This document shows positions 6,689-56,577 of a stretch of 64,000 nt of DNA, piece by piece; position 1 is the first letter of the stretch; the number at the start of each line of letters is the position of its first letter. The notes under the pieces were generated by a model. That model was not told the origin of the DNA, made no database searches, and saw nothing but the letters and a program-made list of their open reading frames with translations. Origin of the DNA: an uncultured Nitrospinaceae bacterium (GTDB lineage Bacteria; UBA8248). A program made the position numbers and the translations under genes. The stretch spans positions 8,756 to 72,755 of the forward strand of contig CAYTSP010000257.1 in the NCBI GenBank assembly GCA_964440505.1, in the 5' to 3' direction.

Positions 6689-7651
6689 CTAGCCCGTCGA
6701 CTCGAGCGCAATCCGGGCGGAGAGCGTGCGGCTGAATTCTTCTGCGGAGAAATAACCCATTCGTTGCAGTAACAGGTTCCTGGCAGCCACTTCGATCAGC
6801 GTGGGGATATTCCTCCCTGGCGCAACTGGGATTTTCACGTGCGGCAGGTATTTATCCAATAGTTTTTGAGTCTCGATGTCGATTCCGAGGCGCTCGAAAG
6901 GCAAATCCGGACTCCAGGGAATCAACTCCACGATGATGTCGACATTTTTTTCATATCGAATCGCCACGACGCCAAAGAGGTCTTTCAGATTCAGTATTCC
7001 AAGCCCCCTCACCTCGATATGATGTTTGAGCAGTTCCGTACTTTTTCCAACCAGCTCATTCCCGCGCAACTGGATATCGACCACATCGTCGGCGACGAGT
7101 CGATGTCCCCGCGTGACGAGATGGAGCGCGCACTCGCTTTTTCCGATGCCGCTTTTCCCCTGAATCAGCACACCGACGCCATACAAATCAACAAGGACGC
7201 CGTGCAACCTGGCATGCTGCGAGAGGTGCTCTTCGAGATATCCCGATAATTTCGGTATCAGATCCTTGCCAGGCAAGCTCGATAGTATAATCGGCACACC
7301 GGAACGCTCGGATGCCTCTTTGATGCTCGGAAAAATATGCTTGCCTCCCGTAACCAGTACGGCGCACAGGGGCAAACGAAAGTATTTGCGCACCGCCTCT
7401 ATTCTCTCCTCCTCCATCAGGTCATCCAAGAAACCGACCTCGGTGCTCCCCCATACCTGGATCCTATCCGGGTGCACAGCTTTCAAGAATCCGGCAAGAG
7501 GCAAGCCATTTTTCTGAAAGTGGGTATGGTTAATCCAGCGCCCCATGCCAGATTCGCCCGAGAGTATGGATAACTTCAACTCTTCCCGCAGATCTTCATA
7601 CAATTGAGATACCGAGAGCTTGCTCATCACGTCCCTCGACACTTGACGCAT
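6689..7651 (-). CDS. hprK: HPr kinase/phosphorylase
   Basis: Walker A GKSGIGKSE, the HprK C-terminal kinase domain and LVADD motif. 320 aa. Confidence 0.9.
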   Translation of the reverse strand: MRQVSRDVMSKLSVSQLYEDLREELKLSILSGESGMGRWINHTHFQKNGLPLAGFLKAVHPDRIQVWGSTEVGFLDDLMEEERIEAVRKYFRLPLCAVLVTGGKHIFPSIKEASERSGVPIILSSLPGKDLIPKLSGYLEEHLSQHARLHGVLVDLYGVGVLIQGKSGIGKSECALHLVTRGHRLVADDVVDIQLRGNELVGKSTELLKHHIEVRGLGILNLKDLFGVVAIRYEKNVDIIVELIPWSPDLPFERLGIDIETQKLLDKYLPHVKIPVAPGRNIPTLIEVAARNLLLQRMGYFSAEEFSRTLSARIALESTG

Positions 7652-7882: not shown

Positions 7883-9346
7883 TCATTGACGCATTTTGCG
7901 CCTTTTGCCAGCGGGAGAGATGCGCAGTGCTTTGCGGTATTTCGTCACTGTCCGCCTCGCTATCGCCACGTTATCCTGCTTGAGCCTCTCCACAATTTGC
8001 TGGTCGGTGAGCGGCTTCTCCGGGTTTTCCTGTTCCACGATTTTCTTGATTGTTTCTTTTACAGCTACCGAAGAGGCGCTCTTCCCCATTCCAGATTCCA
8101 ACCCGCTGTGGAAAAAATACTTGAGGCTTAAAACACCCTGCGGCGTATCCATATACTTGCCCGTCGTAGCACGACTCACGGTCGATTCGTGCATCCCGAT
8201 ATCCAGCGCCACATCTCTCAAAATCAGGGGCCTCAGGCGACTCACGCCATGGTCCAAAAAATCCCTTTGGAAACGCACTATGCTTCGGCAAATTTTGAGA
8301 ATCGTCTGCCTTCTCTGCTCTATGCTCTTGACGAACCAGGCAGCCGCCCTGAGCCTCTCATCCAAATATTTCCTTGTATCGGGGGAGGTTCCCGCTTTGT
8401 CGGCCGCCATGGCCGCATAAAGAGAATTCACACGCAGGAGCGGCAGTCCATCGTCATTGAGTGCCACCTCATAATCATCTCCCCTTTTGGTGACGCTCAC
8501 GTCCGGGGCCACTACCTCCACCCTTTGTTCGGAAAAACGCAATCCAGGGCAAGGATCCAGACTTCGAATGATGTGGACAGCCCGAATGATGTCGTCCACA
8601 TCGACACCGTTAACCTTGGCGAGTTTCGCATATTGGCGCTCACCTATCTTCTCAATGTCTTCAAGCACCAGGTCTCGCGCCAAATCCACGAAAGAGGTAT
8701 TTCCGTTTATAGATAAGTCAATATTCTTCAATTGTATAAGAAGGCATTCTTGAAGTGTTCTCGCAGCAATGCCCGGCGGGTTGAAACCTTGCACCAAAGC
8801 CAGTGCCCTATCAGCCTCAAGTGGCCCCAGGCCCATGCCCGCCGCCAACTCCTCCACATCAACGTCCAGATAACCCTCGTCATTTACATTCCAAATAATT
8901 TGCTCGGCAACCCTTGCTACCGGTTCAGGGACCACCGAAAGACTCAATTGCCATACCAGGTGCTCATGCAGCGTATCGGAGCGCGCCAAGGTCTGCTCAT
9001 AAGAGGGGAACTCATCTTCGAAGGTTGGAGGCGAGAAATCATTATAATTGTCCTGCACGATGTTTTCCCAATCGATTTCCACTTCGCCTCTTTCATCATT
9101 TTGACTCTCGGGAACATCGTCTCTCAATTCCGGCATCTCGCCATCAGCTACTTCTTGCACTTCATCCTGAATTTCTTCCAGCAAGGGATTGTTCAGCATT
9201 TCCTGCTGAACAGCTTGCTGCATTTCCGTGCGGTTCAGAGGCAAAAGGCCAATCGCCTGCCGCAACATGGCGGTCATGACGAGGCGCTGCTCCCCCCTCA
9301 TCGCCATCTTATGCTGCAAAGCCATCTTTATTCCCCTTGCCTTCAA
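7883..9346 (-). CDS. rpoN: RNA polymerase sigma-54 factor
   Basis: C-terminal RpoN box ARRTVTKYR and HTH. N-terminal Gln-rich region I. 487 aa. Immediately downstream of lptB, the conserved arrangement. Confidence 0.93.
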
Positions 9347-10107
9347 AGACGAAATTTTTCGCCCAGATAAACATCCCGAGCCTTGTCGCTCGAAGCGATT
9401 TCCTCCGGGGCACCGGACTCGAGTATCCGCCCCTCATTGATGATGTATATCCTGTCGGATATTTGAAAGGCCTCGCGTACATTGTGGTCCGTGATGATGA
9501 CCCCGATTCCACGAGCTTTCAGGCCCGCTACAATATCCTGGATATCGTGAACCACAATGGGATCAATGCCGGCGAAAGGCTCATCAAGGAGCATAAAAGC
9601 GGGATTTGTGGCCAATGCCCGAGCAATTTCTACACGCCTTCTTTCACCGCCGGAGAGAGCATAGCCTTTCACGGATTGAATGTGCTCGATATCCAGATCC
9701 TCCAGAATCTCGTTCAATCGCCTCTCGCGCTGGTTTGAATCACGGGAAACCAATTCAAGGACCGCCATGATGTTTTGCCTCACCGAAAGGCGACGAAACA
9801 CAGACGCCTCCTGCGGCAAATAACTAATTCCCTGCTTGGCACGCATATACATGGGCTGGCCGGTGATTTCCCTGCCATTCAAAAAAATCTCCCCCGCATC
9901 TGGAACGATCAGCCCCACAATCATATAAAATATCGTCGTCTTGCCGGCCCCGTTTGGTCCAAGCAGGCCCACGATTTCGCCGGGCTGCACTTCGAGATCC
10001 ACACCGGAGACGACTCTTCGGCCAGAATAGCTTTTCGTCAATCCGGTTGCGCGAACAGAAACAGCACCCGTGCGTCGTATAGCATTGCCATCGGTTCGCG
10101 TAGCCAT
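9343..10107 (-). CDS. lptB: LPS export ABC transporter ATP-binding protein LptB
   Basis: Walker [13 protein letters not shown] signature [15 protein letters not shown], Walker [11 protein letters not shown]. The ORF track extends to 10188, but the conserved N-terminus begins near MATRT, so the start is placed at about 10107 to avoid overlapping lptA. Confidence 0.88.
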
Positions 10108-10111
10108 GAGC

Positions 10112-10705
10112 CTAATTGGATTTTTTACGGCGGGGTGTCTCGCTGGAAGGAAAAAGGGTGACACTGACTCTCCGGCGAGGTGAGCCATGAACTATTGTTT
10201 TGTCCTCTTTCAAATTCAACTCTATTTTGGCGCCGACCAACTGATTCTTTCCTTCCCACACACGAGGACTGCCTGTCAAAACAGCGATGCCGGTAGAGTC
10301 TCGATATTCAAGCCGAGCAGCAGTGGCGAACCTCCTTTTTGCCTGATCCATCCTCACGTTTCCGGTGGCCACAATTCTATCGACTTCCCCTGCATCGTCT
10401 TTGGAATTCGGCCTGCGCTTCGAGCCCGGTCGTTTGGCTTTCAGTGTATATACTTCGAGGCGATTCGCCTTTATGTGCATGTTTCCCTGGTTCGCCTTTA
10501 CATCTCCGATGAACACGATGAGATTCTTCCGGCTGTTCACTTCCATCTTATCGGAGGTAATGTGGATGGGGGCCTTGCGGTCTAACCGGCTTTGCTTGTT
10601 TTTCTGCTGTGCAAATGAGTTAGCGCCGCTCCATAATAAAAAGACCAGGCAAGACCCCAAAGCAATGGGGCCGAGGCGCTTCAGGCGGAAGTTTTTCGGT
10701 TTCAA
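10112..10705 (-). CDS. lptA: LPS transport periplasmic protein LptA (OstA-like)
   Basis: Signal peptide, then an OstA_N-like beta-jellyroll sequence. Located between lptC and lptB. Confidence 0.72.
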
Positions 10706-10740: not shown

Positions 10741-11352
10741 CTAGTTGGCACGAATTGGTTTATTTCCTCTTTCTTGCTTGAGGAAATCCTCTCTCGCACC
10801 GTATATCGTAGCGCTAACTTTCTCCTTCAGTTTATAATTTCCCAGATCGGTTTGCCCTTGCAGGCCGGTACCAACCAGACGAAAACGAGACCCCTCCATC
10901 AAAACCCGCGAATCCGTATCGATACGTTTTTCTTTTGAGCGAAAATACAAAGAGTCTGTTTTCATTGAAACGCCATTCGACGCCAGGATGGTGACATTGC
11001 CGCTGATCCTGATGTTTCGACTCTCGTTCTGCATGGTACCTTCCTGAGCAATCACATGCGCCGGCTCACCTTCTTTCGGATAAAACCGAAGCTTCAGATT
11101 CTTCAGAATGGTCAAACCTTTTTGACGGTACACCTTTGCGGAGTCCGCCCATAACTCCCATTCCCTGACGCCTTTCGTGTTTTGAACAACATGCACTTTG
11201 TCTATATTAACGTCTGCATCCGAGTCGGTGAGCGAAATTTTGCCCACATCAAGATAATGACTCGAAGAACCCACGATGAAATAGGCAATAGTACCGCCAA
11301 TCGCGAGCAGAAAGCCCAGCAACACCATTCTCAGCATCTTACGGAAAAGCAT
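10741..11352 (-). CDS. lptC: LPS export system protein LptC
   Basis: Single N-terminal TM helix plus LptC-like periplasmic domain, 203 aa. Immediately upstream of lptA/lptB. Confidence 0.7.
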   Translation of the reverse strand: MLFRKMLRMVLLGFLLAIGGTIAYFIVGSSSHYLDVGKISLTDSDADVNIDKVHVVQNTKGVREWELWADSAKVYRQKGLTILKNLKLRFYPKEGEPAHVIAQEGTMQNESRNIRISGNVTILASNGVSMKTDSLYFRSKEKRIDTDSRVLMEGSRFRLVGTGLQGQTDLGNYKLKEKVSATIYGAREDFLKQERGNKPIRAN

Positions 11353-14386: not shown

Positions 14387-16306
14387 CTAGGCTTGGCCGG
14401 GCGCCAGGTCAGTCGGCGAGGACTGCGGGTCCTCACGAGGTTTTTCCTCCGGTTGTGGTGTAGCCGAAGTGTTTTCTTCGCCAACCTCGTCTTTTCGCTT
14501 TGGGCTCCTGGAAATTTGTCCGGTTTCCATCAAAGACTCGATATCCTTGAGATCGATGGTTTCATACTCGAGCAACGCATTGGCGAGCAAATCGAGCTTA
14601 TCTCGATTTTCCTCAAGCAATTTATACGCTCTCTCATAACTCGACGAAACCATATTCTTCACTTCATTATCAATTTCAAGGGCCACCTGGTCGCTATAGT
14701 CCCTGTGTTGGGAGATTTCACGTCCCAGGAATATCTGCTCATGTTTTTTCCCATATGCCAAAGGACCGAGTTTCTCGCTCATCCCCCATTCACAAACCAT
14801 GCTTCTCGCCAAGTCAGTCGATGTCTGGATGTCGGCTTTCGCTCCTGTCGTTAATTCCTCAAAAACCAACATCTCCGCCGCACGTCCACCCATCAGGCAA
14901 GCAAGCTGGTTCGTCAAAAATGTTTTATCGTTGCTATAGCGATCCTCAAGAGGTGAAGACCACGTGCTTCCCAGCGAAAAACCTCGCGGGATGATCGTCA
15001 CCTTCTCGACGGGATCCGTCCCGGGTATCAGCAATGCAACAAGGGCGTGCCCCGCTTCGTGGTAGGCTGTATTTCTCTTCTCCTTTTCGCTGAGCGCCAT
15101 GCTACGCCGCTCCTTGCCCATCAAGACTTTATCCTTCGCTTCCATCAGGTCTTCATTTTCGACAGAGCGTTTGCCCCGGCGCGCCGCAAGAAGTGCGGAT
15201 TCGTTCAAAAGGTTCGCCAGATCAGCGCCCGCAAAGCGCGGAGTCCCACGCGCTATAAGATTCAAATCGACGGAATCATCAAGCGGCACCTTCTCCGAAT
15301 GCACTTTCAAAATCGCCAAGCGCCCTTTAATGTCAGGCAGGGAGACAACAATCTGGCGGTCAAAGCGACCTGGACGGAGGAGAGCCGGATCCAACACGTC
15401 CGGCCGGTTCGTCGCCGCCATCAGGATGACCCCGTCATTCGATTCAAAACCATCCATCTCGACAAGAAGCTGATTGAGCGTCTGCTCACGCTCATCGTGG
15501 CCGCCACCGAGGCCGGCGCCCCTGTGCCGCCCGACAGCATCAATCTCATCAATGAAAATAATGCACGGCGCATTCGACTTGCCCTGTTCGAACAAATCCC
15601 GAACCCTCGACGCCCCAACCCCGACAAACATCTCCACAAAACTAGAGCCGCTTATCGAAAAAAACGGCACATCCGCTTCGCCCGCGATGGCGCGCGCCAG
15701 CAGGGTTTTGCCCGTGCCGGGAGGACCAACCATAAGAACACCCTTGGGAATACGTGCGCCCAGGCGCGTGAACTTTTGCGGATCGCGGAGAAAATCAACG
15801 AGCTCTTCGAGCTCTTCCTTTGCTTCCTCGATGCCGGCCACATCCGCGAACGTAATCTTTTTCTTCGCGGATTCGGGCATCATACGCGCTTTGCTTTTTC
15901 CGAACGAAAGAGCCTTGGAGCCGCCCATTTGCATCTGACGCATGAAGAAAATCCAAACGCCCAGCATCACCAGCATAGGCAGCCAACTCAACAACATATT
16001 CATATACCAGGAGTTTTGTTCTACCGGCTGTGCCGTGATGCGAACTCCCTTGGCCCTGAGGGTGTCGATCAATTTCGGGTCCTTTGGAGCGTGGGTATGG
16101 AAGGATCTGCCGCTAAGGTAGCGGCCCCGGATGTTGTCACCCTGGACAATCACTTCGCTCACCTGTCCTTCAGATACCGCTTGCAGAAAATCGCTATAAA
16201 CAACCGTTCTGTCCGTCGAACGTGGGCTGTTGAAGGCCTGGAACAAACCCACCATTATCAACCCGATAATCAGCCAAAGTGCCAAATTCTTGTAAAATTG
16301 ATTCAA
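14387..16306 (-). CDS. ftsH: ATP-dependent zinc metalloprotease FtsH
   Basis: Two N-terminal TM segments, AAA Walker [12 protein letters not shown], zinc motif HEAGHAL. 639 aa. Confidence 0.95.
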
Positions 16307-25244: not shown

Positions 25245-27377
25245 TCAGCCATGAACTTCCATCAACTTCTTGACCAAAGCGACATTATGTCGGTGGCCAC
25301 TTCTCTCCGCGGTCACTTTCCCTCGGATAGGACGACCGGTTAAATACAGATCTCCGATAACGTCAAGAATTTTATGTCGAACGAACTCATTGGGAAATCG
25401 CAGTTGGGTATTCACGACACGCGCCTTGTCCACAAGAATCACGTTATCCCAACGACCCCCCTCGGCCAGGCCCATTTTCTCGAGCGACTCCAATTCAGAA
25501 ACAAAACCAAACGTACGAGCGGGTGCGATTTCTTCTTGAAAACTCAATGCATTCTTATGTTCATACAGATAGGATTGTTTTCCAATCGGCTCAGGATAAT
25601 CGATGAGGTATGAAACGGAAAAAGAATCCGCTGGCTCTATACGAATATAACCCTTCTCGTCGGCCGGCTCACCTATTTCGTAAACCTTATCAACCCACAA
25701 GTCTTCGCGTTTTTCCTTTTGATCCTCAATACCCGCTTCTTCAAGCAAGCGGCAAAACTCCACTGCCGAGCCATCCATGACGGGCACTTCCTCGCTCATC
25801 TTGATGAGTATATTGCTAATCTTATAAGCGTGCAGCGCGCTCATCAGATGCTCTATCGTTCGAGCCGTCACAGCTCCATTGCGCAAGTTCGTCGCATGGT
25901 TGGTACCAGCCACAAAATCGACATTCGCCCTCACAATATCGGGGCTCGTCACGCTGCCGAACTGAATCCCGCTCCCCGGCGGCAAGGGTTCAATGATTAA
26001 TCCCGTTTTCAGCCCTGAATGAAGCCCCCGACCATACAACACGACACTCTTCGAAATACTCCTTTGATTTGTTTCCCTAAGCGTCGCTGAAGCCGGTAAT
26101 ACGGGCTCTATATCGTATGCTTTAATTTTTCGCTTTAAAGCAGGCTCCGTCATACCTACAGCCTGGGCGGTTTTGTTGATATCCCAGCCGTGCTCTTCCA
26201 AATGGAAGGACAGGTATTGCCTCTCCCACTGAGTTCTGGCCACATTAAAATTGGATGGGACGTCGTCTTTTGATGTATCCGCCTCGAAATCAGAAACTTC
26301 GCGTATCGCATGCGGCAAGTGGGCGATTCGAATCTCCGATCCTTGTGATGCATATGCTGCTTTGGTCACTGCGCCTTTTAGTTCAGCTATATTGCCCGGC
26401 CAGTCATAGTCTTCTAGTAGTGCAATGACATCCTCTGAAAATTTCTTTTCATGCCTGCCAATTTCAGTGCATTCATTCAAAAACCTGTTGGCTAACGGTA
26501 GAATGTCCTCTTTTCGTTCGCGCAAAGAGGGCAAATTTATTACATCGGCGCCTATTTGGGTGGACAAGGTTCGTACGTAAGTCTTGTCTTTCGGGGTCCC
26601 CATGTGATCAAGGGACACCACCAAACGTATTGAATCCTTTGCATACCCAAGGAATCGAGCGAGAAACCTCTCACGCTCCGCCATGGGCAACTGCTCCAGA
26701 CCATCAAGATATACCGTCCCTTGAAAGGTATCGGGCACCAGCCGCTCCAGTGTCTCTTCCCATTCGTTTACCTCAGGCACCGGAAACAGAGAGCGGCAAT
26801 GAACTGGCCTAAAGCCTTCTTCTTCCTTGATACCATTCTTATGAATCACCTTTGCAATAAAACGCTTGCCGGTTCCCCTTTCGCCCGCAATCAACAAGGG
26901 GCCAATATCTTTCGCCGCCCTCCTGATAGCTCTTCGAACCCTTTGAATACTCTTGCTGGCGCCGTCAAGCATCACATCAACGACATCATTTACCTTGAAT
27001 TCCTTGGCCCTTCGCGACTGAACAGCGGAATCGACTATACGCAAAACCGCATCAATAGACAGAGGTTTTTCAATAAAATTGAAAGCGCCCAGCTTGGTTG
27101 CGGCCACCGCGGTTTCAATATTACCGTGACCAGACATCACAACGACTTCGATATCCGCGTTCGACTCCTTCACCGCTTGCAAAGTCTTGATTCCATCAAT
27201 GCCCGGCATCCACACATCAACCAAAACCACATCAGGAGTTTCAGTTCGAACCAACTGAAGGGCAGTTTCTCCAGACTCCGCCCGCTCTACACGATACCCT
27301 TCATCGTGCAAAACATCTTCCAGGCTGGCGAGTATCTCACGCTCATCATCGACGATGAGGACATGTCCCTTATCCAA
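25245..27377 (-). CDS. Fusion protein: NtrX/NtrC-family response regulator (receiver, degenerate AAA+, Fis-type HTH) joined in-frame to UDP-3-O-acyl-N-acetylglucosamine deacetylase LpxC
   Basis: A single stop-free 710-codon frame on the minus strand. Residues 1-120 form a receiver (DDE pocket, phospho-Asp in VLVDVWMPGIDG, conserved S/T and K). Residues about 135-345 are sigma-54-activator-like AAA+ (GERGTGK Walker A, RERKEDI, YDWPGN), then HTH TQWERQYLSFHLEEHGWDINKTAQAVGMTEPALKRKIK. Residues 435-710 align along the full length of LpxC (NQRSISKSVVLYGRGLHSG, TIEHLM, MDGSA, ARTFGF, FVRHKILDVIGDL, RSGH). Starts with TTG and overlaps the ntrY stop by 8 nt. Confidence 0.8.
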   Translation of the reverse strand: MDKGHVLIVDDEREILASLEDVLHDEGYRVERAESGETALQLVRTETPDVVLVDVWMPGIDGIKTLQAVKESNADIEVVVMSGHGNIETAVAATKLGAFNFIEKPLSIDAVLRIVDSAVQSRRAKEFKVNDVVDVMLDGASKSIQRVRRAIRRAAKDIGPLLIAGERGTGKRFIAKVIHKNGIKEEEGFRPVHCRSLFPVPEVNEWEETLERLVPDTFQGTVYLDGLEQLPMAERERFLARFLGYAKDSIRLVVSLDHMGTPKDKTYVRTLSTQIGADVINLPSLRERKEDILPLANRFLNECTEIGRHEKKFSEDVIALLEDYDWPGNIAELKGAVTKAAYASQGSEIRIAHLPHAIREVSDFEADTSKDDVPSNFNVARTQWERQYLSFHLEEHGWDINKTAQAVGMTEPALKRKIKAYDIEPVLPASATLRETNQRSISKSVVLYGRGLHSGLKTGLIIEPLPPGSGIQFGSVTSPDIVRANVDFVAGTNHATNLRNGAVTARTIEHLMSALHAYKISNILIKMSEEVPVMDGSAVEFCRLLEEAGIEDQKEKREDLWVDKVYEIGEPADEKGYIRIEPADSFSVSYLIDYPEPIGKQSYLYEHKNALSFQEEIAPARTFGFVSELESLEKMGLAEGGRWDNVILVDKARVVNTQLRFPNEFVRHKILDVIGDLYLTGRPIRGKVTAERSGHRHNVALVKKLMEVHG
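25248..26075 (-). other. lpxC: LpxC deacetylase domain of the fusion CDS (boundaries approximate)
   Basis: Aligns from the residue that corresponds to E. coli LpxC Met1 (here a GAA codon at 26075..26073) to the C-terminus. Zinc/catalytic residues E78-H79 (TIEHLM), H238/D242/D246 (FVRHKILDVIGDL) and H265 (RSGHRHN) are all present. Confidence 0.8.
26076..27377 (-). other. NtrX-like regulator module of the fusion CDS: receiver (about 27377..27018), AAA+ (about 26975..26342), Fis-type HTH (about 26246..26118)
   Basis: Domain order and motifs as listed for the parent CDS. The AAA+ part lacks GAFTGA and carries DG instead of DE in Walker B. Confidence 0.7.
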
Positions 27378-29634
27378 TGGAAGCCGTCCTTTCCTTTTCA
27401 GGCGTGATGTCCACAGCAGGCGCCAATGGCAACGTTACGCGAAAAACAGAACCCGCTGGATAGTTATCTCGCACGCCTATCGTTCCATTATGGTCCGCCA
27501 CAATGCGATGACATATAGCTAAACCCAACCCCGAGCCTCTGTCTTTCGTAGAAAAGTAAGGAGAGAATATATGGCCTTTCACGTCTTCCGATATACCCTG
27601 CCCCTGGTCGGCAACTTCAACGACTATCATATTTCTGTCCGCATCACTCCATGCCTGCAAATCTATCTCGCCTTCGACCTCTTGGGATTCAAAGGCATTT
27701 TCCAGCAAATTGATGAACACTCGCTGCAACTGTTCGGGATCCGCCATGACCGCTGCATTCCCTGCAGTGATTTGAATGGAAAATTCCACATTCCCTTTTC
27801 TGCCACGATATAAATTCGCAACATCTTCAATGAGGGGAGCAAACCCGCAAAGCCTCAACCTCGGCTCCGGCATTCGTGCAAACCGGCTGAATTCATTCAC
27901 CATTTCAATCAGACTCGTTACTTGATTGATAATAGTATCCGTACAAGATTCAAATACTTCCGCAAAATCATAGGCTTCACTTTCAAATTTTCTTCTCATT
28001 CTCTGAGCAGAGAGCTGAATCGGTGTAAGCGGATTTTTGATCTCATGCGCGATGCCACGAGCCACTTCTTGCCATGCGGCCACTTTTTGAGCCCGTATCA
28101 AAGCCGTCAAATCATCAAACACAATGACTGCTCCGAGCCTGCCACCATCCGCGCTTTTGAGCAGGGTCAAGCTCGCGCGTAGCGTCAGTACGCGGCCATC
28201 AATCATGATCTCCACTTGCTCCGAAGCGCTTTGGTGTTTTCGATCCCTCATTGAACGCATCAACTGACGGACGGGTTCGAGATGCGCGCTTTCGAAAACC
28301 TCGCTGAACATTCGACCCACGGCATCTTGAGGCTCAACGCTCAGCAACTCCCCAGCCGCTTTGTTGAGAATAGTAACGCGACCCCGGCGATTGATGGATA
28401 TCACACCTGCTCCGATATTTTCGAGCATCGCTTCCATATATCTGCGCCTTCTGTCGATCTCCAGGTTGGAGCGGCGCAGGGTTTCAGAAGACTCTTCGAT
28501 TTTCTCTTTGTTGGCCAATAATTCTTCTGTCATGCTGTTGAATGTGTTGACCAAAATACCTACCTCGCCATCTGCTTGCGCATCTACGCGATGTTCGAGA
28601 TCGCCATCCGACACCGCCCTTGTGGCTTCCGCCAGTTTTTCGATGGGAACCGTGATCCCGCGCGCAAGGTAGAAGCCAAACCATATGGCGGCAAACAAAA
28701 TCAGCAAGGTGACCACCAAAAAAGTGATGATGTAGTTGGCTTTAATTGGGTTCTTGGACAATTCCAACTCTTTATAATTCACGAAAGAATCGGAGATGCC
28801 CCTGATCCTCTCCACGAGCCTATCTGAAACATATTTGGATACGACGATAAACCCCACCACTTTTTTTTGAATCTTCAGAGGCGCCACGCCATAGATGACA
28901 TCGCCTTTTTCCCAGTTCTCTATACTCGAGCGCGACTCCCCATCAATCACCTGATCCACGTATCCCACCAGTGGTGAGAATGTTGCGGCTCGTTCCAACC
29001 CCGGACGATTGACCGATACGATCTCTTTTCGACCCCTATCGTAGAGTTGGATGAAGTCTACCCCCAAGCTCTTTCTCTCGGACTCTAATTTTTGTTCAAT
29101 CGCCTTGGGGTTTGCTAATATGTCGGAGTGCGACTTCTCCAACATAAGCGCTACTCTACTCGCACTGAACAGCGCGTTTCGCTCCACCTCCCGATAATAC
29201 GTTTGAGCCACCTCGAACGACCCTTTGAGCGCTCTCTCCACATTCATGTTGAACAAGGCGTTAAAGCTTTGGTTTATCAGGCCGCTGGCCACCACAAAAA
29301 GAGCCACTACAGGGATGAGCGTAAATCCGACAAAAGCCAACACGAGCTTTAATTGCAAGCGCGAACGGCCGGCGCCCGTTCTCCCCTCGTAGTAAAGACG
29401 CACCAAGTGCTTTGCCACCAAAAGAATAGCCACCATGAGCAGAATGATGCTCAGGTTCACAAGCGAAAATACAACGACGTTGTTAAGCAGGGGGACTCCC
29501 GGTTCAAGCTCCTTGAAGTAAATCCAGGCCGCGAACGAAAGAGTCGCTATGATGATCAAGGCGATGAAAGAGCGCAGAAGCGTTCTTCGTCGACGGGAAG
29601 AGATTTCCAGATTTTTCAGTCGCTTTGGATACAA
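27370..29634 (-). CDS. NtrY-like sensor histidine kinase (N-terminal multi-TM region, HAMP, PAS, HisKA, HATPase)
   Basis: 754 aa. H-box ARGIAHEIKNPLTPIQLSAQRM is the NtrY-type signature. N, G1 and G2 ATP-lid motifs. Several N-terminal TM helices. Confidence 0.85.
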   Translation of the reverse strand: MYPKRLKNLEISSRRRRTLLRSFIALIIIATLSFAAWIYFKELEPGVPLLNNVVVFSLVNLSIILLMVAILLVAKHLVRLYYEGRTGAGRSRLQLKLVLAFVGFTLIPVVALFVVASGLINQSFNALFNMNVERALKGSFEVAQTYYREVERNALFSASRVALMLEKSHSDILANPKAIEQKLESERKSLGVDFIQLYDRGRKEIVSVNRPGLERAATFSPLVGYVDQVIDGESRSSIENWEKGDVIYGVAPLKIQKKVVGFIVVSKYVSDRLVERIRGISDSFVNYKELELSKNPIKANYIITFLVVTLLILFAAIWFGFYLARGITVPIEKLAEATRAVSDGDLEHRVDAQADGEVGILVNTFNSMTEELLANKEKIEESSETLRRSNLEIDRRRRYMEAMLENIGAGVISINRRGRVTILNKAAGELLSVEPQDAVGRMFSEVFESAHLEPVRQLMRSMRDRKHQSASEQVEIMIDGRVLTLRASLTLLKSADGGRLGAVIVFDDLTALIRAQKVAAWQEVARGIAHEIKNPLTPIQLSAQRMRRKFESEAYDFAEVFESCTDTIINQVTSLIEMVNEFSRFARMPEPRLRLCGFAPLIEDVANLYRGRKGNVEFSIQITAGNAAVMADPEQLQRVFINLLENAFESQEVEGEIDLQAWSDADRNMIVVEVADQGQGISEDVKGHIFSPYFSTKDRGSGLGLAICHRIVADHNGTIGVRDNYPAGSVFRVTLPLAPAVDITPEKERTASIG

Positions 29635-29637
29635 AAT

Positions 29638-30243
29638 TCACATTCCTTTAGAGCTGAACGTCCGGGAATAGCTCCAATCAGAATTCTTCCCCCAAAAAGC
29701 GAGTAAATAATTAAAGGGAAAAACAAAATCCACATGATTCAATCGCGCTCTGATTTTGACATAATATTGACCATTGAGGGACAAAGCCTCGCCAGACAGA
29801 ATGGGTGTACCATTCAATTCACGCATCCAGTCCATCATTTCGCCCTGGCTTTTCGTCACTTTTCTTTCAATGTCTTTCGCGCCTTCTCTGAGATGAAAAG
29901 TGTATGTTTTTTTCAGGGCGCTATATTTCACTTGATGATGCAATTGCCGCGCAGAGACTTCCAGATCATAGATCAGCTTGCGAGAGCGGAGGAGACTTAC
30001 ATCAAAGATGAACTTCGTGGTCACACCGCTATGGATGGCTTCCAGAAGTTTTGGCGAAAATACGCCCAGAAGAGAACCAAAAACGAGCAACTCCCCTTTC
30101 TTTTCAACAACGACGATATCCTGTATTCGAATTCCGCCTTGGTCATCCGTTGCGGAGAGCGCCGGCCCGACCAGAAAGAAGAGCACACAAATGGCTATGC
30201 TTAATTTTCTCAGAACAAATGTTTTCTGGAAGTTAGATAACAT
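29638..30243 (-). CDS. DUF4390-like periplasmic/secreted protein, the conserved first gene of ntrYX-type operons
   Basis: 201 aa with an N-terminal hydrophobic signal. This position (4 nt upstream of ntrY) and size match the DUF4390 gene that precedes ntrY in beta-proteobacterial operons. Family assigned from memory of that context, not from a computed search. Confidence 0.5.
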   Translation of the reverse strand: MLSNFQKTFVLRKLSIAICVLFFLVGPALSATDDQGGIRIQDIVVVEKKGELLVFGSLLGVFSPKLLEAIHSGVTTKFIFDVSLLRSRKLIYDLEVSARQLHHQVKYSALKKTYTFHLREGAKDIERKVTKSQGEMMDWMRELNGTPILSGEALSLNGQYYVKIRARLNHVDFVFPFNYLLAFWGKNSDWSYSRTFSSKGM

Positions 30244-33059: not shown

Positions 33060-33458
33060 TTACTCCGCCTTCGATTCACGGGGGGATAGGCTCATCCGGG
33101 ATTTGGAATCGGATTGCGAGGTAAGTTCATTACGCGCAGTTGTGGATTCTTCGGTCGCAGGATTTCCCATTGGGAGGAACTTGCCACTTTGCTCCCGCGC
33201 CTCATCCAGATTACTCTCCAGCGACTTGACTTCCCGCTTCAATTTCCCGATTTGGGTCCTGAACTTCAACCTGTCTAATGCGCCACCAAGCCATGCCACC
33301 ATGAACCCGCATGCAAACACGGCCAATAGAACGTAAAAAAGAGGCAAGTTGATGCTGCCTTGATAATAGGCAACAGTCACCGGCTTCATATTGATGACAC
33401 CGAAGCTCAGAATCGCCAATGACAGGATCAAACCGATGATGAGTCGAAGGCTGCCCAT
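33060..33458 (-). CDS. LapA-like (DUF1049) inner-membrane protein
   Basis: Two N-terminal TM helices followed by a coiled-coil, charged C-terminus. 132 aa, typical of the LapA/YciS family. Confidence 0.55.
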   Translation of the reverse strand: MGSLRLIIGLILSLAILSFGVINMKPVTVAYYQGSINLPLFYVLLAVFACGFMVAWLGGALDRLKFRTQIGKLKREVKSLESNLDEAREQSGKFLPMGNPATEESTTARNELTSQSDSKSRMSLSPRESKAE

Positions 33459-37698: not shown

Positions 37699-38706
37699 TT
37701 ATCCCCTCGGGTGGCTCTTGTCCAAAAGTCCCCGCAGTTTTTGCCTGTCCACATGCGTGTAAACCTCGGTGGTGGAAATATCCGAATGCCCGAGCATCGC
37801 CTGGACGGCCCGCAAGTCGGCCCCGTGACTAAGCAGATGAGTCGCAAAGCTGTGCCGGAATACATGGGGACTCACGCCCTTGCCCACGCCCGCTTCTTTC
37901 GCCCATCTCTTGACCCTCGCCCAGAAAGCTTGACGGGTCATGGGCCCTCCCCGGCTCGTGAGAAATACATAATCCGATCTCCGGGCGCGAAGAAGACTCA
38001 GCCGAGCGGTATCCAGATAATCCGCAAGCATTTCTTTCGCCGCATCTCCTACGGGAACAAGCCGGGATTTATCTCCTTTGCCATGGACGATGCAAAATCC
38101 CGATTCAAGTTCAATTTGATTCAGCTTGAGTCGAATGATCTCGCTGACGCGCATGCCGGTGGCGTACAAAAGCTCGAACATGGCCCTGTCCCGAATCGCC
38201 TGCGGCGTTTTGTCATCGGGCGCCTGCAGAATCCTGGACATATCTTCTTGAGAAAGCGTCTTGGGCAAACGCTTCCACTTCGAAGGTTGCACGATGTCCG
38301 CCGTAAAATCCTCTTTTATATCCCCATCGCGGACCAGCAACCTGGCCAGCGCGCGAATGGACGCCAGGTGCCGCCGAAGGGTGGTATCCGATTTTCCCCT
38401 CTCCCGTTTATCCTTGAGATAATCGATAACGGTGCTTTTCGACCAATCCGCCGGTGAAACATCCTCGTTTTCTTGCAGCCAATAGAAAAACGATTCGATG
38501 TCCCGCCCGTAACTCTCCACGGTATTGATCGCACGACGACGCTCGATCAGGAGAAAATCCCTGAAAGTCCTTAAGGTATCGACCAAGCGGGCATCCAGCG
38601 ATACGCCATTATTTTTTTCATGATCTTCGGTCGAAAATTTTTCTGTCGTCAACGTCCGAACCTCATTGCTCAGGATTTGCCCCATGTGAGGCGGGTGAAA
38701 CGACAC
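37699..38706 (-). CDS. xerD: Tyrosine site-specific recombinase XerD/XerC
   Basis: Phage-integrase N-terminal SAM-like domain and catalytic domain with R...HxxR...Y (LGHSDISTTEVYTHV). 335 aa. Housekeeping context. Confidence 0.78.
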   Translation of the reverse strand: MSFHPPHMGQILSNEVRTLTTEKFSTEDHEKNNGVSLDARLVDTLRTFRDFLLIERRRAINTVESYGRDIESFFYWLQENEDVSPADWSKSTVIDYLKDKRERGKSDTTLRRHLASIRALARLLVRDGDIKEDFTADIVQPSKWKRLPKTLSQEDMSRILQAPDDKTPQAIRDRAMFELLYATGMRVSEIIRLKLNQIELESGFCIVHGKGDKSRLVPVGDAAKEMLADYLDTARLSLLRARRSDYVFLTSRGGPMTRQAFWARVKRWAKEAGVGKGVSPHVFRHSFATHLLSHGADLRAVQAMLGHSDISTTEVYTHVDRQKLRGLLDKSHPRG

Positions 38707-40349
38707 CAGGAATCATATGAGGAAGAATCTATTTTCTTCGCCACGAAAATATAGAAACAGGCGGCCAGTGATACCTCAAGCATCATCATCGCCAATTTCA
38801 GGGCCGACGAGCCCTGCGAATCCCACAATTGCAGATGAACGAGTTGAAGGTGAACGATATATGCAAGCAACCCCGTCAAGATTCCAAGCACCAGAAGCCT
38901 GTTCAGAGAATGAAGCAACTCCTTTTTCGGGAAATCGCTCCACTCCCGCATGACGCCTCTCAGCAACAACACCGCGTTCAAAGCGCTTGAGCACGATGTG
39001 GCGAGTGCAAGACCGATAAACCCGAGCGGAAACATCAGGGCAACGCTGAGCGCTACGTTCGCGAGCACAGCGATATTGGCGCACCGCACCGGGAAACTCG
39101 TGTTCAATCGAGCGTGGAACACCCCGGCTAAAAGCCTCGTGACTCCGAAAAACATCAGCCCGACTGCATACGCCTGCAAGGCGGCCGCGCTTGCGACTGT
39201 ATGGTCTTGCGTAAAGGCGCCTCGTTCGAAAATAACCTCCATGATCGGATGAGCCAAAGCCATCAGGCCGAACGTAGAGGGAATCGTGATGAACAGCGTG
39301 AGCCTCCCCGCTTCGAGCATGGCGTTGCGCTCGGCGTCTCCGGATGTGGAATTTTCCCTGTTCTTCGCCGCATAATCCGACAAGATCGGCAATACGGCGG
39401 AAACCACCGCGAGACTCAATATGCCATGAGGAAGCTGAACCAACCGATTCGCATAGTAAAGATAAGAAATGGAACCTTCGGCCAGGAACGAAGCCAGCCA
39501 GCGGTCAACGAGAACATTGACCTGAAAAATAGCGCCTCCAAGAGCTGCCGGCCCCATCAGAGCCAAGCATCTGCCGACGCCCTCCACCCGCCACGGGATG
39601 GAAGGAAGCGGCAAAATCCGTAGTTTTCCCATGAAAGGGAGTTGGAAAAAAAACTGCGCGGCCCCGCCGATTACGACGGCCCAGGCGAGCCAACGGATTG
39701 CCTCCGTCCTACTCACCAAAAAACCCGCTAATAAAAGGGCGATGATGATGACCACGTTCTGGAGCGCGGGCGCGAAAGCGGGCACGAAGAAGCGGCGCGC
39801 CGCGTTCAACATACCGGCTGCGACCGCCCACAGGCCGATAAAAATAATGAACGGAAACATGATCCTGGTCAGTTGCGCAGCAAGGCGCAGTTTTTCCGGG
39901 TTGCTCGAAAAACCAGGCGCCAGCGCTCTCATCAAAGGTTCTGCGAACCAGATCCCGACCGCACAGCCCACGCTTCCTGCGAAGATGAGAAACACCAACA
40001 TGCCGCCGGCGAATTTTTTGGCCTGCCTGGCTCCGGATTGTTCACGCACGTCGGAGTAGACGGGAAGAAAGGAGGAGCTCAGCGCACCTTCCATGAACAT
40101 GCGCCTGAAAAGGTTGGGAATCGCGAAGGCGACGAAAAAGGCATCGGCCATCATCGCGGCGCCAAAGAGTTTGGCGATCAGCAAATCACGGAAAAAACCC
40201 GCAACCCGACTGATGAGAGTCGCCAAACTTACGGGACCCGCAAACCTGGAAATGCTCTCCTCCGCAGCGGTATCACCATTTCCTGCCGACGCAGCAGCAG
40301 GAACATTTTTTTCCCGTCCTGGATTAGAGGATTCAGGTGGTGTGGTCAC
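38670..40349 (-). CDS. murJ: Lipid II flippase MurJ (MviN)
   Basis: 14-TM MOP-superfamily protein with the MurJ N-terminal pattern (LISRVAGFFRDLLIAKLFGA). 559 aa including a probable N-terminal over-extension. Confidence 0.86.
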   Translation of the reverse strand: MTTPPESSNPGREKNVPAAASAGNGDTAAEESISRFAGPVSLATLISRVAGFFRDLLIAKLFGAAMMADAFFVAFAIPNLFRRMFMEGALSSSFLPVYSDVREQSGARQAKKFAGGMLVFLIFAGSVGCAVGIWFAEPLMRALAPGFSSNPEKLRLAAQLTRIMFPFIIFIGLWAVAAGMLNAARRFFVPAFAPALQNVVIIIALLLAGFLVSRTEAIRWLAWAVVIGGAAQFFFQLPFMGKLRILPLPSIPWRVEGVGRCLALMGPAALGGAIFQVNVLVDRWLASFLAEGSISYLYYANRLVQLPHGILSLAVVSAVLPILSDYAAKNRENSTSGDAERNAMLEAGRLTLFITIPSTFGLMALAHPIMEVIFERGAFTQDHTVASAAALQAYAVGLMFFGVTRLLAGVFHARLNTSFPVRCANIAVLANVALSVALMFPLGFIGLALATSCSSALNAVLLLRGVMREWSDFPKKELLHSLNRLLVLGILTGLLAYIVHLQLVHLQLWDSQGSSALKLAMMMLEVSLAACFYIFVAKKIDSSSYDSWCRFTRLTWGKS

Positions 40350-40467
40350 AAAATTCCTGGCACCGGGGCGGAGAACTTGACAACCCTTTGTTCCGTGGTA
40401 TTTTACCGGGGCTGTGAGACAGCCTCAAGGGAAACATTTCAACTATATTCACGGAGAATGAAACAAA

Positions 40468-40722
40468 TTGCCACATATTCGTTCGGCTAAAAAGCGCAAT
40501 CGTCAAAATATCGTTCGCCGCGCCAGAAACCGCGCTATTCGCACGCAGTTTCGCAACACCATCAAAGAAGTTTTGAATAGCGAAGAAAACCCCGAAGAAC
40601 TGCTGAAACAAGCCCAGTCGCAACTGGACCGCGCAGCCACCAAAGGAATTATCCACCAAAAGACAGCGTCGAGACGCGCGGGAAGATTGGCCAAGCGAGT
40701 TCACGCGGCCTCTGCGAAATAG
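40468..40722 (+). CDS. rpsT: 30S ribosomal protein S20
   Basis: (M)PHIRSAKKRNRQ...: classic S20 N-terminus, 84 aa. Start codon is TTG with GGAG 11 nt upstream. Confidence 0.9.
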   Translation: MPHIRSAKKRNRQNIVRRARNRAIRTQFRNTIKEVLNSEENPEELLKQAQSQLDRAATKGIIHQKTASRRAGRLAKRVHAASAK

Positions 40723-41766
40723 CTAAGCAACCTTGTGCGTTCCGCTTCTGGCAGAGCGTACATCCACCAAAAACAACTCAAGCGTCTGACGAGCCACCTT
40801 CATGTCACTCGTCCGCTTGAGCTTGCGATCCACTTGAAGCAATTTCCCGTACAACTCGCGCAAATAGGCCGACCCCAACCCCCTGACCTGACTCTCAAGC
40901 CTTTTCCCCACAAAAGCCGGCAGACCCAGCACTTGAGAAATCCCCTGGGCGCCTCGGCCATTTCTGATCAAGGCCTTTGAAATCGTCCAGCGCCTGATCA
41001 AATTGCGCAATAAACCGATGAAAACAACGGGGTGTTCGGTTTCCATCATCCGGCGCAAGAGAACAAGGGTTCCACTCAAGCTCTCCTGGCTGAGCGAATC
41101 CCCCAGCTTATAGAGCAACTCTTCCTTGGAGTGTCCGATTATTTCCCGAACCTCTTCTTCGCCGGCAAGTGTTCCCGGCATCACATATGAGGCGATCTTC
41201 TCGAGCTCTGTGCTGAGCCTCATCATGGAGGGCTTGACCATTTCGACCAACAAATCGGTGGCCTTTGGGTGCAACTCAAATCCCAACTCTACAGCGCGCC
41301 CGTGAAGCCATTTCTTTAAGTCCTCCCCCTCCAGACTGTCCACCCGACAAACCACGCTCTCCTTGACCAGGCGTTGGAAGAAAGTGGTTCGCATATCGAT
41401 GTTTTCCGCGCAAAAAACAAGAACCGTGGACGCGGATGGGTGATCGAGATAGGAGAGAAAAACAGATTCATCCCTCTCGCCCGGCCTGGCGAAATTGAGG
41501 ACTTCTATAAGGCGCTTCTCCGCCATGAATGGCAGCGTCTGGGCAATGGCAATGATTTCGGACGCATCGGCCTCAGTCCAGTCGAAACGATCATGGTTGA
41601 AATCACCCGGCTCATCACCAAAAACCTTACGACGAACAACGCGCAAGTATTCATCCCGCAAAAAAGAATCCGTGCCTTCCAAAAGGTATATGGGCTTCGG
41701 TGGCGCGTTCTTCAAATCGGACAGCGCCGTCAAGGAACTTTTTGGCTTTTTGCGACTCGGGGACAA
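40723..41766 (-). CDS. holA: DNA polymerase III delta subunit
   Basis: 347 aa clamp-loader delta-like sequence (IYLLEGTDSFL...). Lies in the conserved lptE-holA pair. Confidence 0.75.
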   Translation of the reverse strand: MSPSRKKPKSSLTALSDLKNAPPKPIYLLEGTDSFLRDEYLRVVRRKVFGDEPGDFNHDRFDWTEADASEIIAIAQTLPFMAEKRLIEVLNFARPGERDESVFLSYLDHPSASTVLVFCAENIDMRTTFFQRLVKESVVCRVDSLEGEDLKKWLHGRAVELGFELHPKATDLLVEMVKPSMMRLSTELEKIASYVMPGTLAGEEEVREIIGHSKEELLYKLGDSLSQESLSGTLVLLRRMMETEHPVVFIGLLRNLIRRWTISKALIRNGRGAQGISQVLGLPAFVGKRLESQVRGLGSAYLRELYGKLLQVDRKLKRTSDMKVARQTLELFLVDVRSARSGTHKVA

Positions 41767-41767
41767 T

Positions 41768-42304
41768 CTAAAAGCCCTCTAATACGAGGCTCACGAGGTC
41801 TTCCGACAGTGAGTCGGCTACCTGTTGATTGGCGTTCGAACGGTTTGCGTCGCTTCGCGCGATGGATGAGGAAACCGCGAATTCGGCATAAGACTCCATG
41901 TCCTGATTGATGAGCAATTTCCTCCGCTCTTTGTTATGCAGCCGTATTCGGGTGCGCACAACGACACGATATTGCAAAGCCCTGTCAGTCCGAGTGAAGC
42001 CAATTGGAGAGAGGCGATACTCGCGTAAAACGCCTTCAAGAGCGATATCCGCATCGGGGGAGCCGGTAACCCGAAGGCGACCGTCCCGCAAGAATCTCCC
42101 TATTACAGCTTTCGTAACGGCGCGCCCCAGGCCCGGCTCGTTCGTCTGGTTCCGGAATGGTGGTATCGAAATCGTTCGAGCGTCCTTAAGGTCCCTGGGG
42201 CGCAATGTTCCCTCGAGGTCGTAGCCGCAGCCCGCCGTCAGGAAAACGATAAGCAGGAGAGGGAAACGGAGCGTACGGATCATCCTCAAAAGTACTCCGC
42301 TCAA
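41768..42304 (-). CDS. lptE: LPS-assembly lipoprotein LptE
   Basis: Lipobox LTAGCG, LptE-like body, 178 aa, immediately upstream of holA. Confidence 0.68.
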   Translation of the reverse strand: MSGVLLRMIRTLRFPLLLIVFLTAGCGYDLEGTLRPRDLKDARTISIPPFRNQTNEPGLGRAVTKAVIGRFLRDGRLRVTGSPDADIALEGVLREYRLSPIGFTRTDRALQYRVVVRTRIRLHNKERRKLLINQDMESYAEFAVSSSIARSDANRSNANQQVADSLSEDLVSLVLEGF

Positions 42305-49488: not shown

Positions 49489-49547
49489 CCTCCCGCGCCT
49501 CTCGCGCGTCTGAATAAGAGTTGTGGATGGCTGAAAACCTGCTCCAA

Positions 49548-51746: not shown

Positions 51747-51757
51747 ACCGAAACCCC

Positions 51758-52735
51758 TTAACCCTTGCCCACTTTCGGCTTCGCCTCTTCTGCATCGTAT
51801 TGCGCGGCGTATAGGGCGAGATGTTCTTCGCGCTTCGCCTCGTCTCTGATGAGAGGGAACCCGGCCTCGTAGCGGGATTTCAGATAACTCTCTGCGCATG
51901 CGCGCGCCATTTTTCTGATTCTGCCGATGTAGCGCGCCCGCTCACTCACGCTGATGGCGCCCCGCGCATCCAGAAGGTTGAAAGTGTGCGAGCACTTGAG
52001 CGCGTGATCGTAGGCGGGAAACGTGAGGCCCTTCTCCACGAGACGCAAACCTTCGGCCTCGTATTTATCAAAAATATCGAAATGGATTTTAACGTCCGCC
52101 TCCTCGAAATTATAATGGCTGAATTCCACTTCCGTCTGATGGTGCACGTCGGCGTACCGGACGATTCCGCCATCGGTATCTCGCGCCCAGATGAGGTCGT
52201 ACACGCTTTCCACCCCTTGCAGGTACATGGCGATGCGCTCGAGCCCGTAGGTCAATTCCGCGGACACCATCTCCAAATCCAGCCCGCCGGCCTGCTGGAA
52301 ATACGTGAACTGCGTGACCTCCATGCCGTCCAGCCAAACCTCCCAGCCCAGACCCCACGCGCCCAGGTTCGGGGATTCCCAGTCGTCCTCGACGAAGCGA
52401 ATGTCGTGATCGAGCGGGTCGATTCCCAGATCCACGAGGCTTTCGAGATACTGCTCCTGCACGTCGATGGGCGAGGGCTTCAAAATCACCTGGTATTGAT
52501 AGTAGTGCTGCAGCCTGTTCGGGTTCTCCCCGTAGCGGCCGTCCGTCGGCCTTCTGCTGGGCTCGACGTAGGCCACCTTCCAGGGTTCGGGGCCGAGGGC
52601 GCGCAGAAAAGTGGCCGGGTTCATGGTGCCCGCGCCCACCTCGATGTCGTATGGCTGCTGGATGACGCATCCTTTTCGAGACCAGTACTTCTCCAGCCCC
52701 ATAATCACTTCCTGAAACGTCAAGGCATCGCTCAA
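51758..52735 (-). CDS. glyQ: Glycine--tRNA ligase alpha subunit
   Basis: [15 protein letters not shown] and class II motifs. 325 aa. Confidence 0.95.
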
Positions 52736-53940: not shown

Positions 53941-53949
53941 TTTATCCCA

Positions 53950-55200: not shown

Positions 55201-55222
55201 CGAAGAGCTCTTGTCTGCTCGA

Positions 55223-56551: not shown

Positions 56552-56577
56552 CTCTCTTTGACCCGAAAAGCCGCGAA

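Follow-up and report, generated by a model that had tools for sequence, protein, structure and literature searches.

We analysed a stretch of 64,000 nucleotides from an uncultured Nitrospinaceae bacterium (GenBank assembly GCA_964440505.1, contig CAYTSP010000257.1, positions 8,756 to 72,755 of the forward strand), which we refer to as the window, and found that it encodes a response regulator joined in a single 710-aa protein to LpxC, the committed enzyme of lipid A synthesis, which controls flux into lipid A and is an important target for antibiotics. From the N to the C terminus, Pfam assigns to this protein a receiver domain (REC), a degenerate AAA+ domain, the AAA+ lid, a Fis-type helix-turn-helix domain (HTH_8) and LpxC. 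We favour the reading, at a probability of roughly 0.6, that the protein is an ATPase-dead, sigma-54-independent derivative of NtrX fused to a catalytic LpxC, and that the conserved signalling path runs from an NtrY-type kinase to REC and from REC to LpxC. A preliminary description of the window had singled out the part of the gene at 26342-26975 (minus strand), which is residues 135-345 of the 710-aa open reading frame (ORF), as an AAA+ module unlikely to hydrolyse ATP or to contact sigma-54, and had proposed that LpxC is the output that the regulator controls.

The AAA+ module lacks the loops and catalytic residues of sigma-54 activators

The AAA+ module retains little of the machinery of its family beyond the P-loop. 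The Walker A motif had been read as GERGTGKRF with its Lys retained, and the Walker B region as GTVYLDGLEQL, in which the usual DE has become DG and the catalytic Glu is lost; both readings hold, at residues 165-173 and 220-230, respectively. It had also been stated that the segment in which L1 should lie contains no GAFTGA and is about 18 residues shorter than expected. The motif is indeed absent, but the length was overestimated: 11 residues are missing relative to NtrC1 of Aquifex, and another 10 are missing at L2. The distance from the Walker A Lys to the Walker B Asp is 56 residues here, compared with 67 in NtrC1, 63 in NtrX of Brucella and 62 in VpsR of Vibrio cholerae, and Walker B and sensor I lie 34 residues apart instead of 44, i.e. 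there is a second deletion of 10 residues. Both in phmmer alignments with NtrC1, VpsR and NtrX and in a MAFFT alignment with 120 homologues, the gap falls exactly where ELFGYEKGAFTGA sits.

The remaining catalytic positions have changed as well. Sensor I reads VSLD in place of AATN, with loss of the Asn/Thr. The Arg-finger segment reads YVRTLSTQI in place of FREDLYYRL, with both Arg columns lost, and sensor II reads NIAEL in place of NVREL (WPGNIAEL), such that the Arg has become Ala. Two motifs of the lid region, RERKEDI and YDWPGN, had been reported as retained, and we find them at residues 285-292 (as LRERKEDI) and 324-329. Of the features by which a sigma-54 activator is recognised in sequence, the window protein therefore has neither GAFTGA nor the Walker B DE, the Arg fingers, sensor I or the sensor II Arg. 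A regular-expression search found no GAFTGA-like motif in the fused protein or in any of the six reading frames of the 64-kb window.

The Sigma54_activat profile (PF00158) aligns with residues 139-196 only, corresponding to profile positions 3-60 of 168, which is the Walker A third. Its score of 37 bits exceeds the cutoff of 20.2 through the Walker A segment alone, and the match does not extend over the full length of the profile. A structural model made with AlphaFold2 (AF2) agrees. In the full-length model (mean predicted local distance difference test score, pLDDT, of 81, and about 80-90 in the AAA+ core), the core consists of five strands (161-165, 188-193, 220-225, 250-257 and 278-282) without an L1 or L2 hairpin, the places of which hold short helices only. 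An intact GAFTGA loop and DE Walker B that had simply been misaligned by eye can be rejected, because the partial Pfam match, phmmer, MAFFT and the AF2 secondary structure agree with one another.

Without the catalytic Glu, sensors I and II or an Arg finger acting in trans, the AAA+ module almost certainly does not turn over ATP. Likewise, because the L1/GAFTGA and L2 loops are absent, it would be unable to engage sigma-54 or to remodel the sigma-54 holoenzyme. On both counts the expectation of the preliminary description agrees with every catalytic AAA+ column that we checked. Nucleotide binding by the module is plausible, because the AAA+ fold, the P-loop and the Walker B Asp are kept.

The degenerate motifs are shared across homologues and the module is under purifying selection

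The fused architecture is present in well over 100 protein clusters, with source names Nitrospinota/Nitrospinae, Tectomicrobia and Schekmanbacteria, and the fusion is also found as a single ORF in metagenome-assembled genomes (MAGs) labelled Thermodesulfobacteriota, Syntrophaceae and Desulfomonilaceae. The closest genomes are MAGs with 98% identity (e.g. chromosome OZ244799.1). We ruled out that the fusion is an artefact of assembly or of a frameshift, as the identical architecture recurs in more than 100 clusters and in independent assemblies, including multi-megabase contigs.

We counted motif states in 103 full-length fused homologues and took invariant columns from a separate alignment of 82 sequences. 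The Walker A Lys is kept in 101/103 homologues and the Walker B Asp in 86/103. The catalytic Glu of Walker B, by comparison, is found in 3/103 (Gly in 59, Asp in 17 and Asn in 13), the sensor II Arg in 7/103 (Lys in 44 and Ala in 43), an Arg at the two Arg-finger columns in 6/103 and 8/103, and GAFTGA in 0/103. Because the same motif states are fixed across these homologues, they are not due to chance. The only invariant columns of the AAA+ core are the P-loop glycines G165, G168 and G170, and K171 is conserved at 90% or more.

The ratio of nonsynonymous to synonymous substitution rates (dN/dS), estimated by the Nei-Gojobori method from comparisons of the window gene with five close relatives, amounts to about 0.02 for REC, 0.04 for LpxC, 0.14 for the lid, 0.07-0.13 for the linker and HTH, and about 0.2 (range 0.11-0.30) for the AAA+ core. 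The AAA+ module is thus clearly relaxed relative to the neighbouring domains, yet still under purifying selection. The same gradient appears in the identity to the window protein at the deepest level, which is 23% for the AAA+ core, 56% for REC and 53% for LpxC.

That the AAA+ core is the fastest-evolving part of the protein, with a dN/dS 5-10 times that of REC or LpxC, could mean that the AAA+/HTH part is a functionless vestige, a linker en route to deletion in a protein that already works purely as REC-LpxC. The whole-module deletions described below, of which there were probably two or more at this one locus, would fit such a history. We nevertheless consider it unlikely. A dN/dS of about 0.2 is very much lower than 1; across several phyla, the glycines of the P-loop do not vary and the Walker A Lys is nearly invariant; AF2 predicts a well-formed AAA+ domain; and the HTH, with a dN/dS of about 0.1, scores above its Pfam cutoff. 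Purifying selection, P-loop invariance and a confidently predicted fold together favour a structural or nucleotide-binding role over neutral decay. The preliminary description had proposed that the regulator may act as a phosphorylation-controlled scaffold for oligomerisation and DNA binding. The basis for such a role is the dN/dS of the AAA+ core and the HTH together with the invariance of the P-loop, which are consistent with it.

A different kind of role would be that of a ligand sensor. The AAA+ remnant would then report on ATP/ADP energy charge, or bind cyclic di-GMP (c-di-GMP) as VpsR and FleQ do, and, jointly with phosphorylation of REC, would gate DNA binding, LpxC or both. Conservation of the P-loop and the Walker B Asp alongside loss of the residues for hydrolysis is what one would expect of such a sensor, and Brucella NtrX was crystallised with ATP and with ADP, according to the titles of its PDB entries. 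Moreover, the best match of the AAA+ segment alone among solved structures is VpsR, which depends on c-di-GMP and has an ND Walker B (PMC6158489). The similarity to VpsR is modest, however (73 bits), and may reflect shared degeneracy only; furthermore, the module is altogether absent from the short forms of the family. We therefore regard a ligand sensor as improbable.

Relatives at the same locus retain only REC and LpxC

The homologues fall into three states. In state (i), represented by deep clades of 727-773 aa, the L1 and L2 loops have normal length with no GAFTGA, Walker B is DD (rarely DE), and sensor II has a Lys. In state (ii), a clade of about 700-711 aa that includes the window gene, both loops are deleted, Walker B is DG, and sensor II has an Ala. 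State (iii) comprises proteins of 441-458 aa made up solely of REC and LpxC with a disordered linker between them, without AAA+ or HTH. Two of these short forms (441 aa and 458 aa), from sister Nitrospinota lineages, could be placed on long contigs, and their position there corresponds exactly to that of the window gene. The shared gene order is (LapA_dom)-MutS-DUF4390-NtrY(754 aa)-X-PurM-PurN-LolA-RseP-IspG-ProS, where X is the fused or the short gene. A 727-aa form is found at this syntenic locus as well. The proposal that LpxC is the controlled output thereby gains comparative support, in that nothing but REC-LpxC is left at this locus in sister lineages, still next to NtrY.

The 458-aa form (P0053) shows how the short state may have arisen. 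Just before its LpxC domain it keeps LRQKIKAYDIE (LKRKIKAYDIE in the window protein), the last part of the recognition helix of the HTH, and this remnant is the footprint of an in-frame internal deletion. It shares 72-74% identity with the 710-aa forms versus 59-65% with the other short forms. In a neighbour-joining tree (without bootstrap), it nests among the 710-aa forms, and the short forms as a whole take two positions. Because the HTH relic, the pairwise identities and the placement in the tree all point in this direction, we conclude that deletion of the whole module probably happened at least twice. An AF2 model of a short form (predicted template modelling score, pTM, of 0.65) has a disordered linker and still contains the long alpha5/linker helix (residues 108-132 in the window protein). 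Altogether, these comparisons suggest that REC and LpxC, encoded next to NtrY, form the core that is conserved, that the AAA+/HTH body is dispensable in some lineages, and that this body is being lost over evolutionary time.

Cultured Brachyspira also encode a single ORF, of 426-435 aa, in which a linker of some 45 aa joins an NtrC-type REC to a full LpxC, and which is followed by a sigma-70-family gene. It is found in Brachyspira hampsonii 30446 (L028, 3530-4837) and likewise at loci L022, L024, L029, L037 and L041. The Brachyspira genome and lipid A papers that we examined make no mention of a REC-LpxC ORF. As Brachyspira is culturable, the minimal REC-LpxC form is open to experiment.

Constraint is strongest in REC and LpxC

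The two domains that persist in every form keep the residues on which their function depends. REC has the acidic pocket, phospho-acceptor Asp and conserved Lys of a response regulator: D10, D11, D54 (the phospho-acceptor) and K104 are invariant. The LpxC domain matches PF03331 over profile positions 1-267 of 268 (280 bits) and TIGR00325 with 238 bits, above the cutoff of 187. Its catalytic and zinc-binding residues E509, H510, T622, H668, K669, D672, D676 and H695 are likewise invariant, and we take their counterparts in E. coli LpxC to be E78, H79, T191, H238, K239, D242, D246 and H265. In LpxC, the residues of known role are the zinc ligands His/His/Asp, a Glu that serves as general base, a His that serves as general acid, and Thr/Lys. 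The predicted fold superimposes on that of Aquifex LpxC (1yh8) with a target-normalised TM-score of 0.95 and a root-mean-square deviation of 1.5 A (Foldseek). The fused LpxC is therefore predicted to be fully catalytic.

The LpxC domain stops right after the catalytic fold (…LVKKLMEVHG), without a tail like the FtsH degron of E. coli. In E. coli, this degron is carried by the C-terminal tail of LpxC (literature cited in PMC3333781 and PMC12444477), and proteolysis by FtsH/LapB controls the enzyme. A gene for FtsH lies in the window at 14387-16306 (minus strand), 9 kb from the fused lpxC.

The retention of an HTH under purifying selection raises the alternative that the regulator is a conventional sigma-70-type transcription factor, an NtrX-like repressor or activator that perhaps autoregulates its operon. 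LpxC would then be no regulated output; it would be carried along as a co-translated passenger or serve as a substrate-sensing "trigger enzyme". In R. sphaeroides, transcription of lpxC is under indirect repression by NtrX (PMC7240162), and lpxC is the sole target of the D. vulgaris response regulator DVU2934 (PMC3333781), which makes it plausible that such a fusion originated by joining a regulator to the product of its own target. Against this, lineages without the HTH still join REC to LpxC next to NtrY, an arrangement that would be purposeless unless REC acts on LpxC, and REC and LpxC are the two parts of the protein under the strongest constraint. We think this alternative very unlikely.

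Gene context

The coordinates of the fused gene, its parts and the two genes upstream of it are collected in Table 1. The fused gene starts with TTG and overlaps the stop of the NtrY-type kinase gene by 8 nt, and the kinase is presumed to be its partner. Adjacency to NtrY is kept at loci L001, L003 and L005. A scan for promoters and terminators between 25 and 30.5 kb gave fewer matches than shuffled controls did; a single sigma-70-like site lies upstream of the gene for the DUF4390 protein.

Table 1. Position of the fused gene, its domains and motifs, and the upstream genes in the window (residue numbers refer to the 710-aa protein)
Feature	Position	Strand	Basis
Fused response-regulator/LpxC gene, 710 aa	25245-27377	-	ORF list, Pfam, NCBIfam, 96-98% identical full-length homologues
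REC domain, residues 6-114	27036-27362	-	PF00072, 103.9 bits; dN/dS ~0.02
Long helix (alpha5 + linker) joining REC to AAA+, residues 108-132	26982-27056	-	AF2 secondary structure
Degenerate AAA+ alpha/beta core, residues 139-285	26523-26963	-	PF14532, 41 bits; AF2; dN/dS ~0.2
Walker A/P-loop GERGTGKRF, residues 165-173, retained	26859-26885	-	Sequence, homologue alignment
Beta2-to-Walker B segment (expected place of L1/GAFTGA), residues 194-219; 11 residues shorter than NtrC1, no GAFTGA	26721-26798	-	Alignments
Walker B GTVYLDGLEQL, residues 220-230; Asp kept, catalytic Glu to Gly	26688-26720	-	Alignments
Site of missing L2/pre-sensor-I hairpin, residues 242-252; 10-residue deletion	26622-26654	-	Alignments
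Sensor I (RLVVSLDHM) and Arg-finger segment (YVRTLSTQI), residues 251-275	26553-26627	-	Homologue alignment
AAA+ lid (AAA_lid_14), residues 286-366	26280-26522	-	PF25601, 74.7 bits
Fis-type HTH_8, residues 383-421	26115-26231	-	PF02954, 24.2 bits (cutoff 22); aligns with NtrX HTH
Complete LpxC domain, residues 438-706	25260-26066	-	PF03331, 280 bits; TIGR00325, 238 bits
NtrY-type sensor histidine kinase, 754 aa (NtrY_N, HAMP, PAS, HisKA, HATPase_c), directly upstream	27370-29634	-	Pfam
DUF4390 protein with N-terminal signal-like segment; first gene of the DUF4390-NtrY-fusion block	29638-30243	-	Conserved block

The genes around the fused lpxC are all on the minus strand, and many are related to the envelope (LolA-like, RseP, FtsH, LptC/LptA/LptB, LptE, MurJ and a LapA-domain protein). 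As had been pointed out, rpoN is among the genes of the window. It lies 16 kb from the fused gene in the usual lptB-rpoN-hprK cluster, which on the minus strand comprises lptC (10741-11352), lptA (10112-10705), lptB (9343-10188), rpoN (7883-9346) and hprK (6689-7651). The sigma-54 that it encodes is intact, with activator-interacting, core-binding and DNA-binding domains, and no GAFTGA-bearing activator is encoded in the 64-kb window.

The LapA-domain protein is a membrane protein of 132 aa (33060-33458, minus strand; PF06305, 52.9 bits) encoded between ybeY and mutS, and a LapA-domain gene is also present at the syntenic loci L001 and L005. LapA and LapB of E. coli belong to the system for LpxC proteolysis.

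In one fused lineage (P0118, 730 aa; L004, 8001-10193), no NtrY or DUF4390 gene is found upstream, and genes for GreA and a methyltransferase occupy this place instead. The locus keeps PurN-LolA-RseP downstream, so that the fused regulator is an orphan. In Nitrospira, linkage occurs without fusion: genes for a histidine kinase and a NarL/LuxR-type response regulator lie directly upstream of a stand-alone lpxC, for example in a Nitrospira lenta MAG (L064, 1919-4927) and also at L047, L056, L062, L065, L067, L071, L082 and L083.

Elsewhere in the window, the G+C content rises from about 0.50-0.55 to about 0.60 in the last 18 kb (46000-64000). The AT skew is unusually positive (+0.15 and +0.10) at 38000-42000, over the MurJ region (38670-40349), and a tyrosine recombinase gene (37699-38706) adjoins MurJ.

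A possible route from NtrY to LpxC

In the mechanism that we favour, NtrY would phosphorylate D54 of REC. Phosphorylation would change the dimerisation of REC and the linker helix, for which the alpha5/linker helix is the likely element, and this change would be relayed through the inert AAA+/HTH body to alter the activity, oligomeric state, availability or stability of LpxC. The AAA+ module would be no more than a structural spacer or dimerisation body that binds nucleotide. In the long forms, sigma-70-type DNA binding by the HTH might change as well, as in other atypical enhancer-binding proteins (EBPs). We put at a little under even odds the further proposal that LpxC is here controlled in a manner distinct from FtsH/LapB proteolysis or transcription, the AAA+/HTH body being an intermediate on the way from a transcription factor to an enzyme-regulating response regulator.

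Several points weigh against the path from NtrY through REC to LpxC as we have drawn it. Motifs are our sole grounds for inferring that ATPase activity has been lost. The AF2 models do not place REC and LpxC in any fixed arrangement with confidence (pTM of 0.56 for the full-length protein and 0.65 for the short form). The fused lineage at L004 has no adjacent NtrY. If the genome contains a second, stand-alone LpxC, the fusion could be specialised in its role or dispensable. Finally, relatives function without AAA+ and HTH, which speaks against the module being an obligatory element of transmission.

The regulation of LpxC outside enterobacteria is largely unknown (reviewed in PMC12444477). A conserved, NtrY-driven link between REC and LpxC would suggest a non-proteolytic, signal-dependent control of outer-membrane synthesis, and the gene fusion is independent support for the connection between NtrYX and lpxC that has been seen genetically in alphaproteobacteria. 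The covalent coupling of a receiver to LpxC is widely conserved, and the family makes visible what may be an evolutionary path from transcription factor to enzyme regulator. Its three-stage series also shows which parts are still selected once sigma-54 activation has been abandoned, namely the P-loop and the fold.

Comparison with known systems

The closest known relative is NtrX, in keeping with the comparison to sigma-54-independent NtrX-type regulators made in the preliminary description: the best NCBIfam match is NtrX (NF051870; 246 bits over the full length), the best PDB match of the regulator part is Brucella NtrX (5M7N), and the upstream kinase carries an NtrY_N domain. Because the equivalog cutoff of 600 is not reached and the protein is more degenerate than Brucella NtrX, we call it NtrX-like and not a member of the NtrX equivalog. 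NtrX of Brucella abortus (5M7N/5M7O/5M7P) has the same REC-AAA+-HTH_8 order, aligns over residues 5-420 (167 bits), also lacks GAFTGA and, like the window protein, has a partner kinase with an NtrY_N domain. It differs in keeping DE at Walker B, the two Arg fingers (FREDLFHRL), an Arg at sensor II and an L2 hairpin of full length, all of which the window protein has lost; in addition, the L1 region of the window protein is 7 residues shorter, and its C-terminal LpxC has no counterpart in NtrX. As here, NtrYX of alphaproteobacteria has links with both the cell envelope and lpxC (PMC7240162; PMC12444477). Deletion of ntrYX in R. sphaeroides raised lpxC mRNA 8.8-fold and increased lipopolysaccharide (PMC7240162), and a 2025 review describes repression of lpxC by NtrYX in both R. 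sphaeroides and Caulobacter (PMC12444477).

Absence of GAFTGA is not peculiar to this family. Atypical EBPs without the motif act at sigma-70 promoters with no need for ATP hydrolysis (PMC6158489; bioRxiv 10.1101/2023.06.06.543975); they include TyrR, HupR, HsfA, PhhR and NtrX as well as VpsR (PMC6158489), and NtrC of R. capsulatus and Caulobacter also has no GAFTGA loop (bioRxiv 10.1101/2023.06.06.543975). Atypical EBPs such as VpsR share with the window protein a sigma-54-activator-type AAA+ without GAFTGA and a non-consensus Walker B, but they keep the sensor II Arg and a loop of L2 length, both of which the window protein has lost. VpsR, TyrR, HupR, HsfA, PhhR and others are, moreover, transcription factors only, with no enzyme domain, and the degeneration in the window family is more extensive, ending in deletion of the whole module in relatives. 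With canonical EBPs (Aquifex NtrC1 (1NY6), PspF and ZraR), the window protein shares the AAA+ fold, the P-loop, LRERKEDI, WPGN, and a REC of the NtrC type that continues into a long linker helix. Unlike them, it has no L1/GAFTGA, no L2, a DG Walker B, no Arg fingers and no sensor I or II, and its AAA+ module is 24 residues shorter overall (205 versus 229 aligned residues).

As an LpxC, the C-terminal domain resembles the short, Aquifex-type enzyme. A survey of lipid A gene evolution reports lpxC-fabZ as the only lpxC fusion (PMC3087551). In that fusion, as here, LpxC is tied to a functionally linked partner; unlike in LpxC-FabZ, the partner in the window protein is a phospho-receiver and regulator and not a metabolic enzyme. 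Our literature search found no description of a REC-LpxC or NtrX-LpxC fusion, of LpxC as an output domain, or of a stepwise loss of the module, which is not proof of novelty, and a text search of the 2025 review of lipid A regulation (PMC12444477) for "fused" and "response regulator" gave 0 matches. A degenerate AAA+ in an atypical EBP is thus of a kind already described, and the fusion to LpxC is apparently undescribed.

Response regulators with enzymatic or pseudo-enzymatic outputs include CheB, PleD/WspR, RpfG and RssB. In each of these, REC covalently controls an effector that does not bind DNA, and the short REC-LpxC forms fit the same pattern. The window protein departs from it in carrying an apparently dead AAA+/HTH body between REC and the enzyme.

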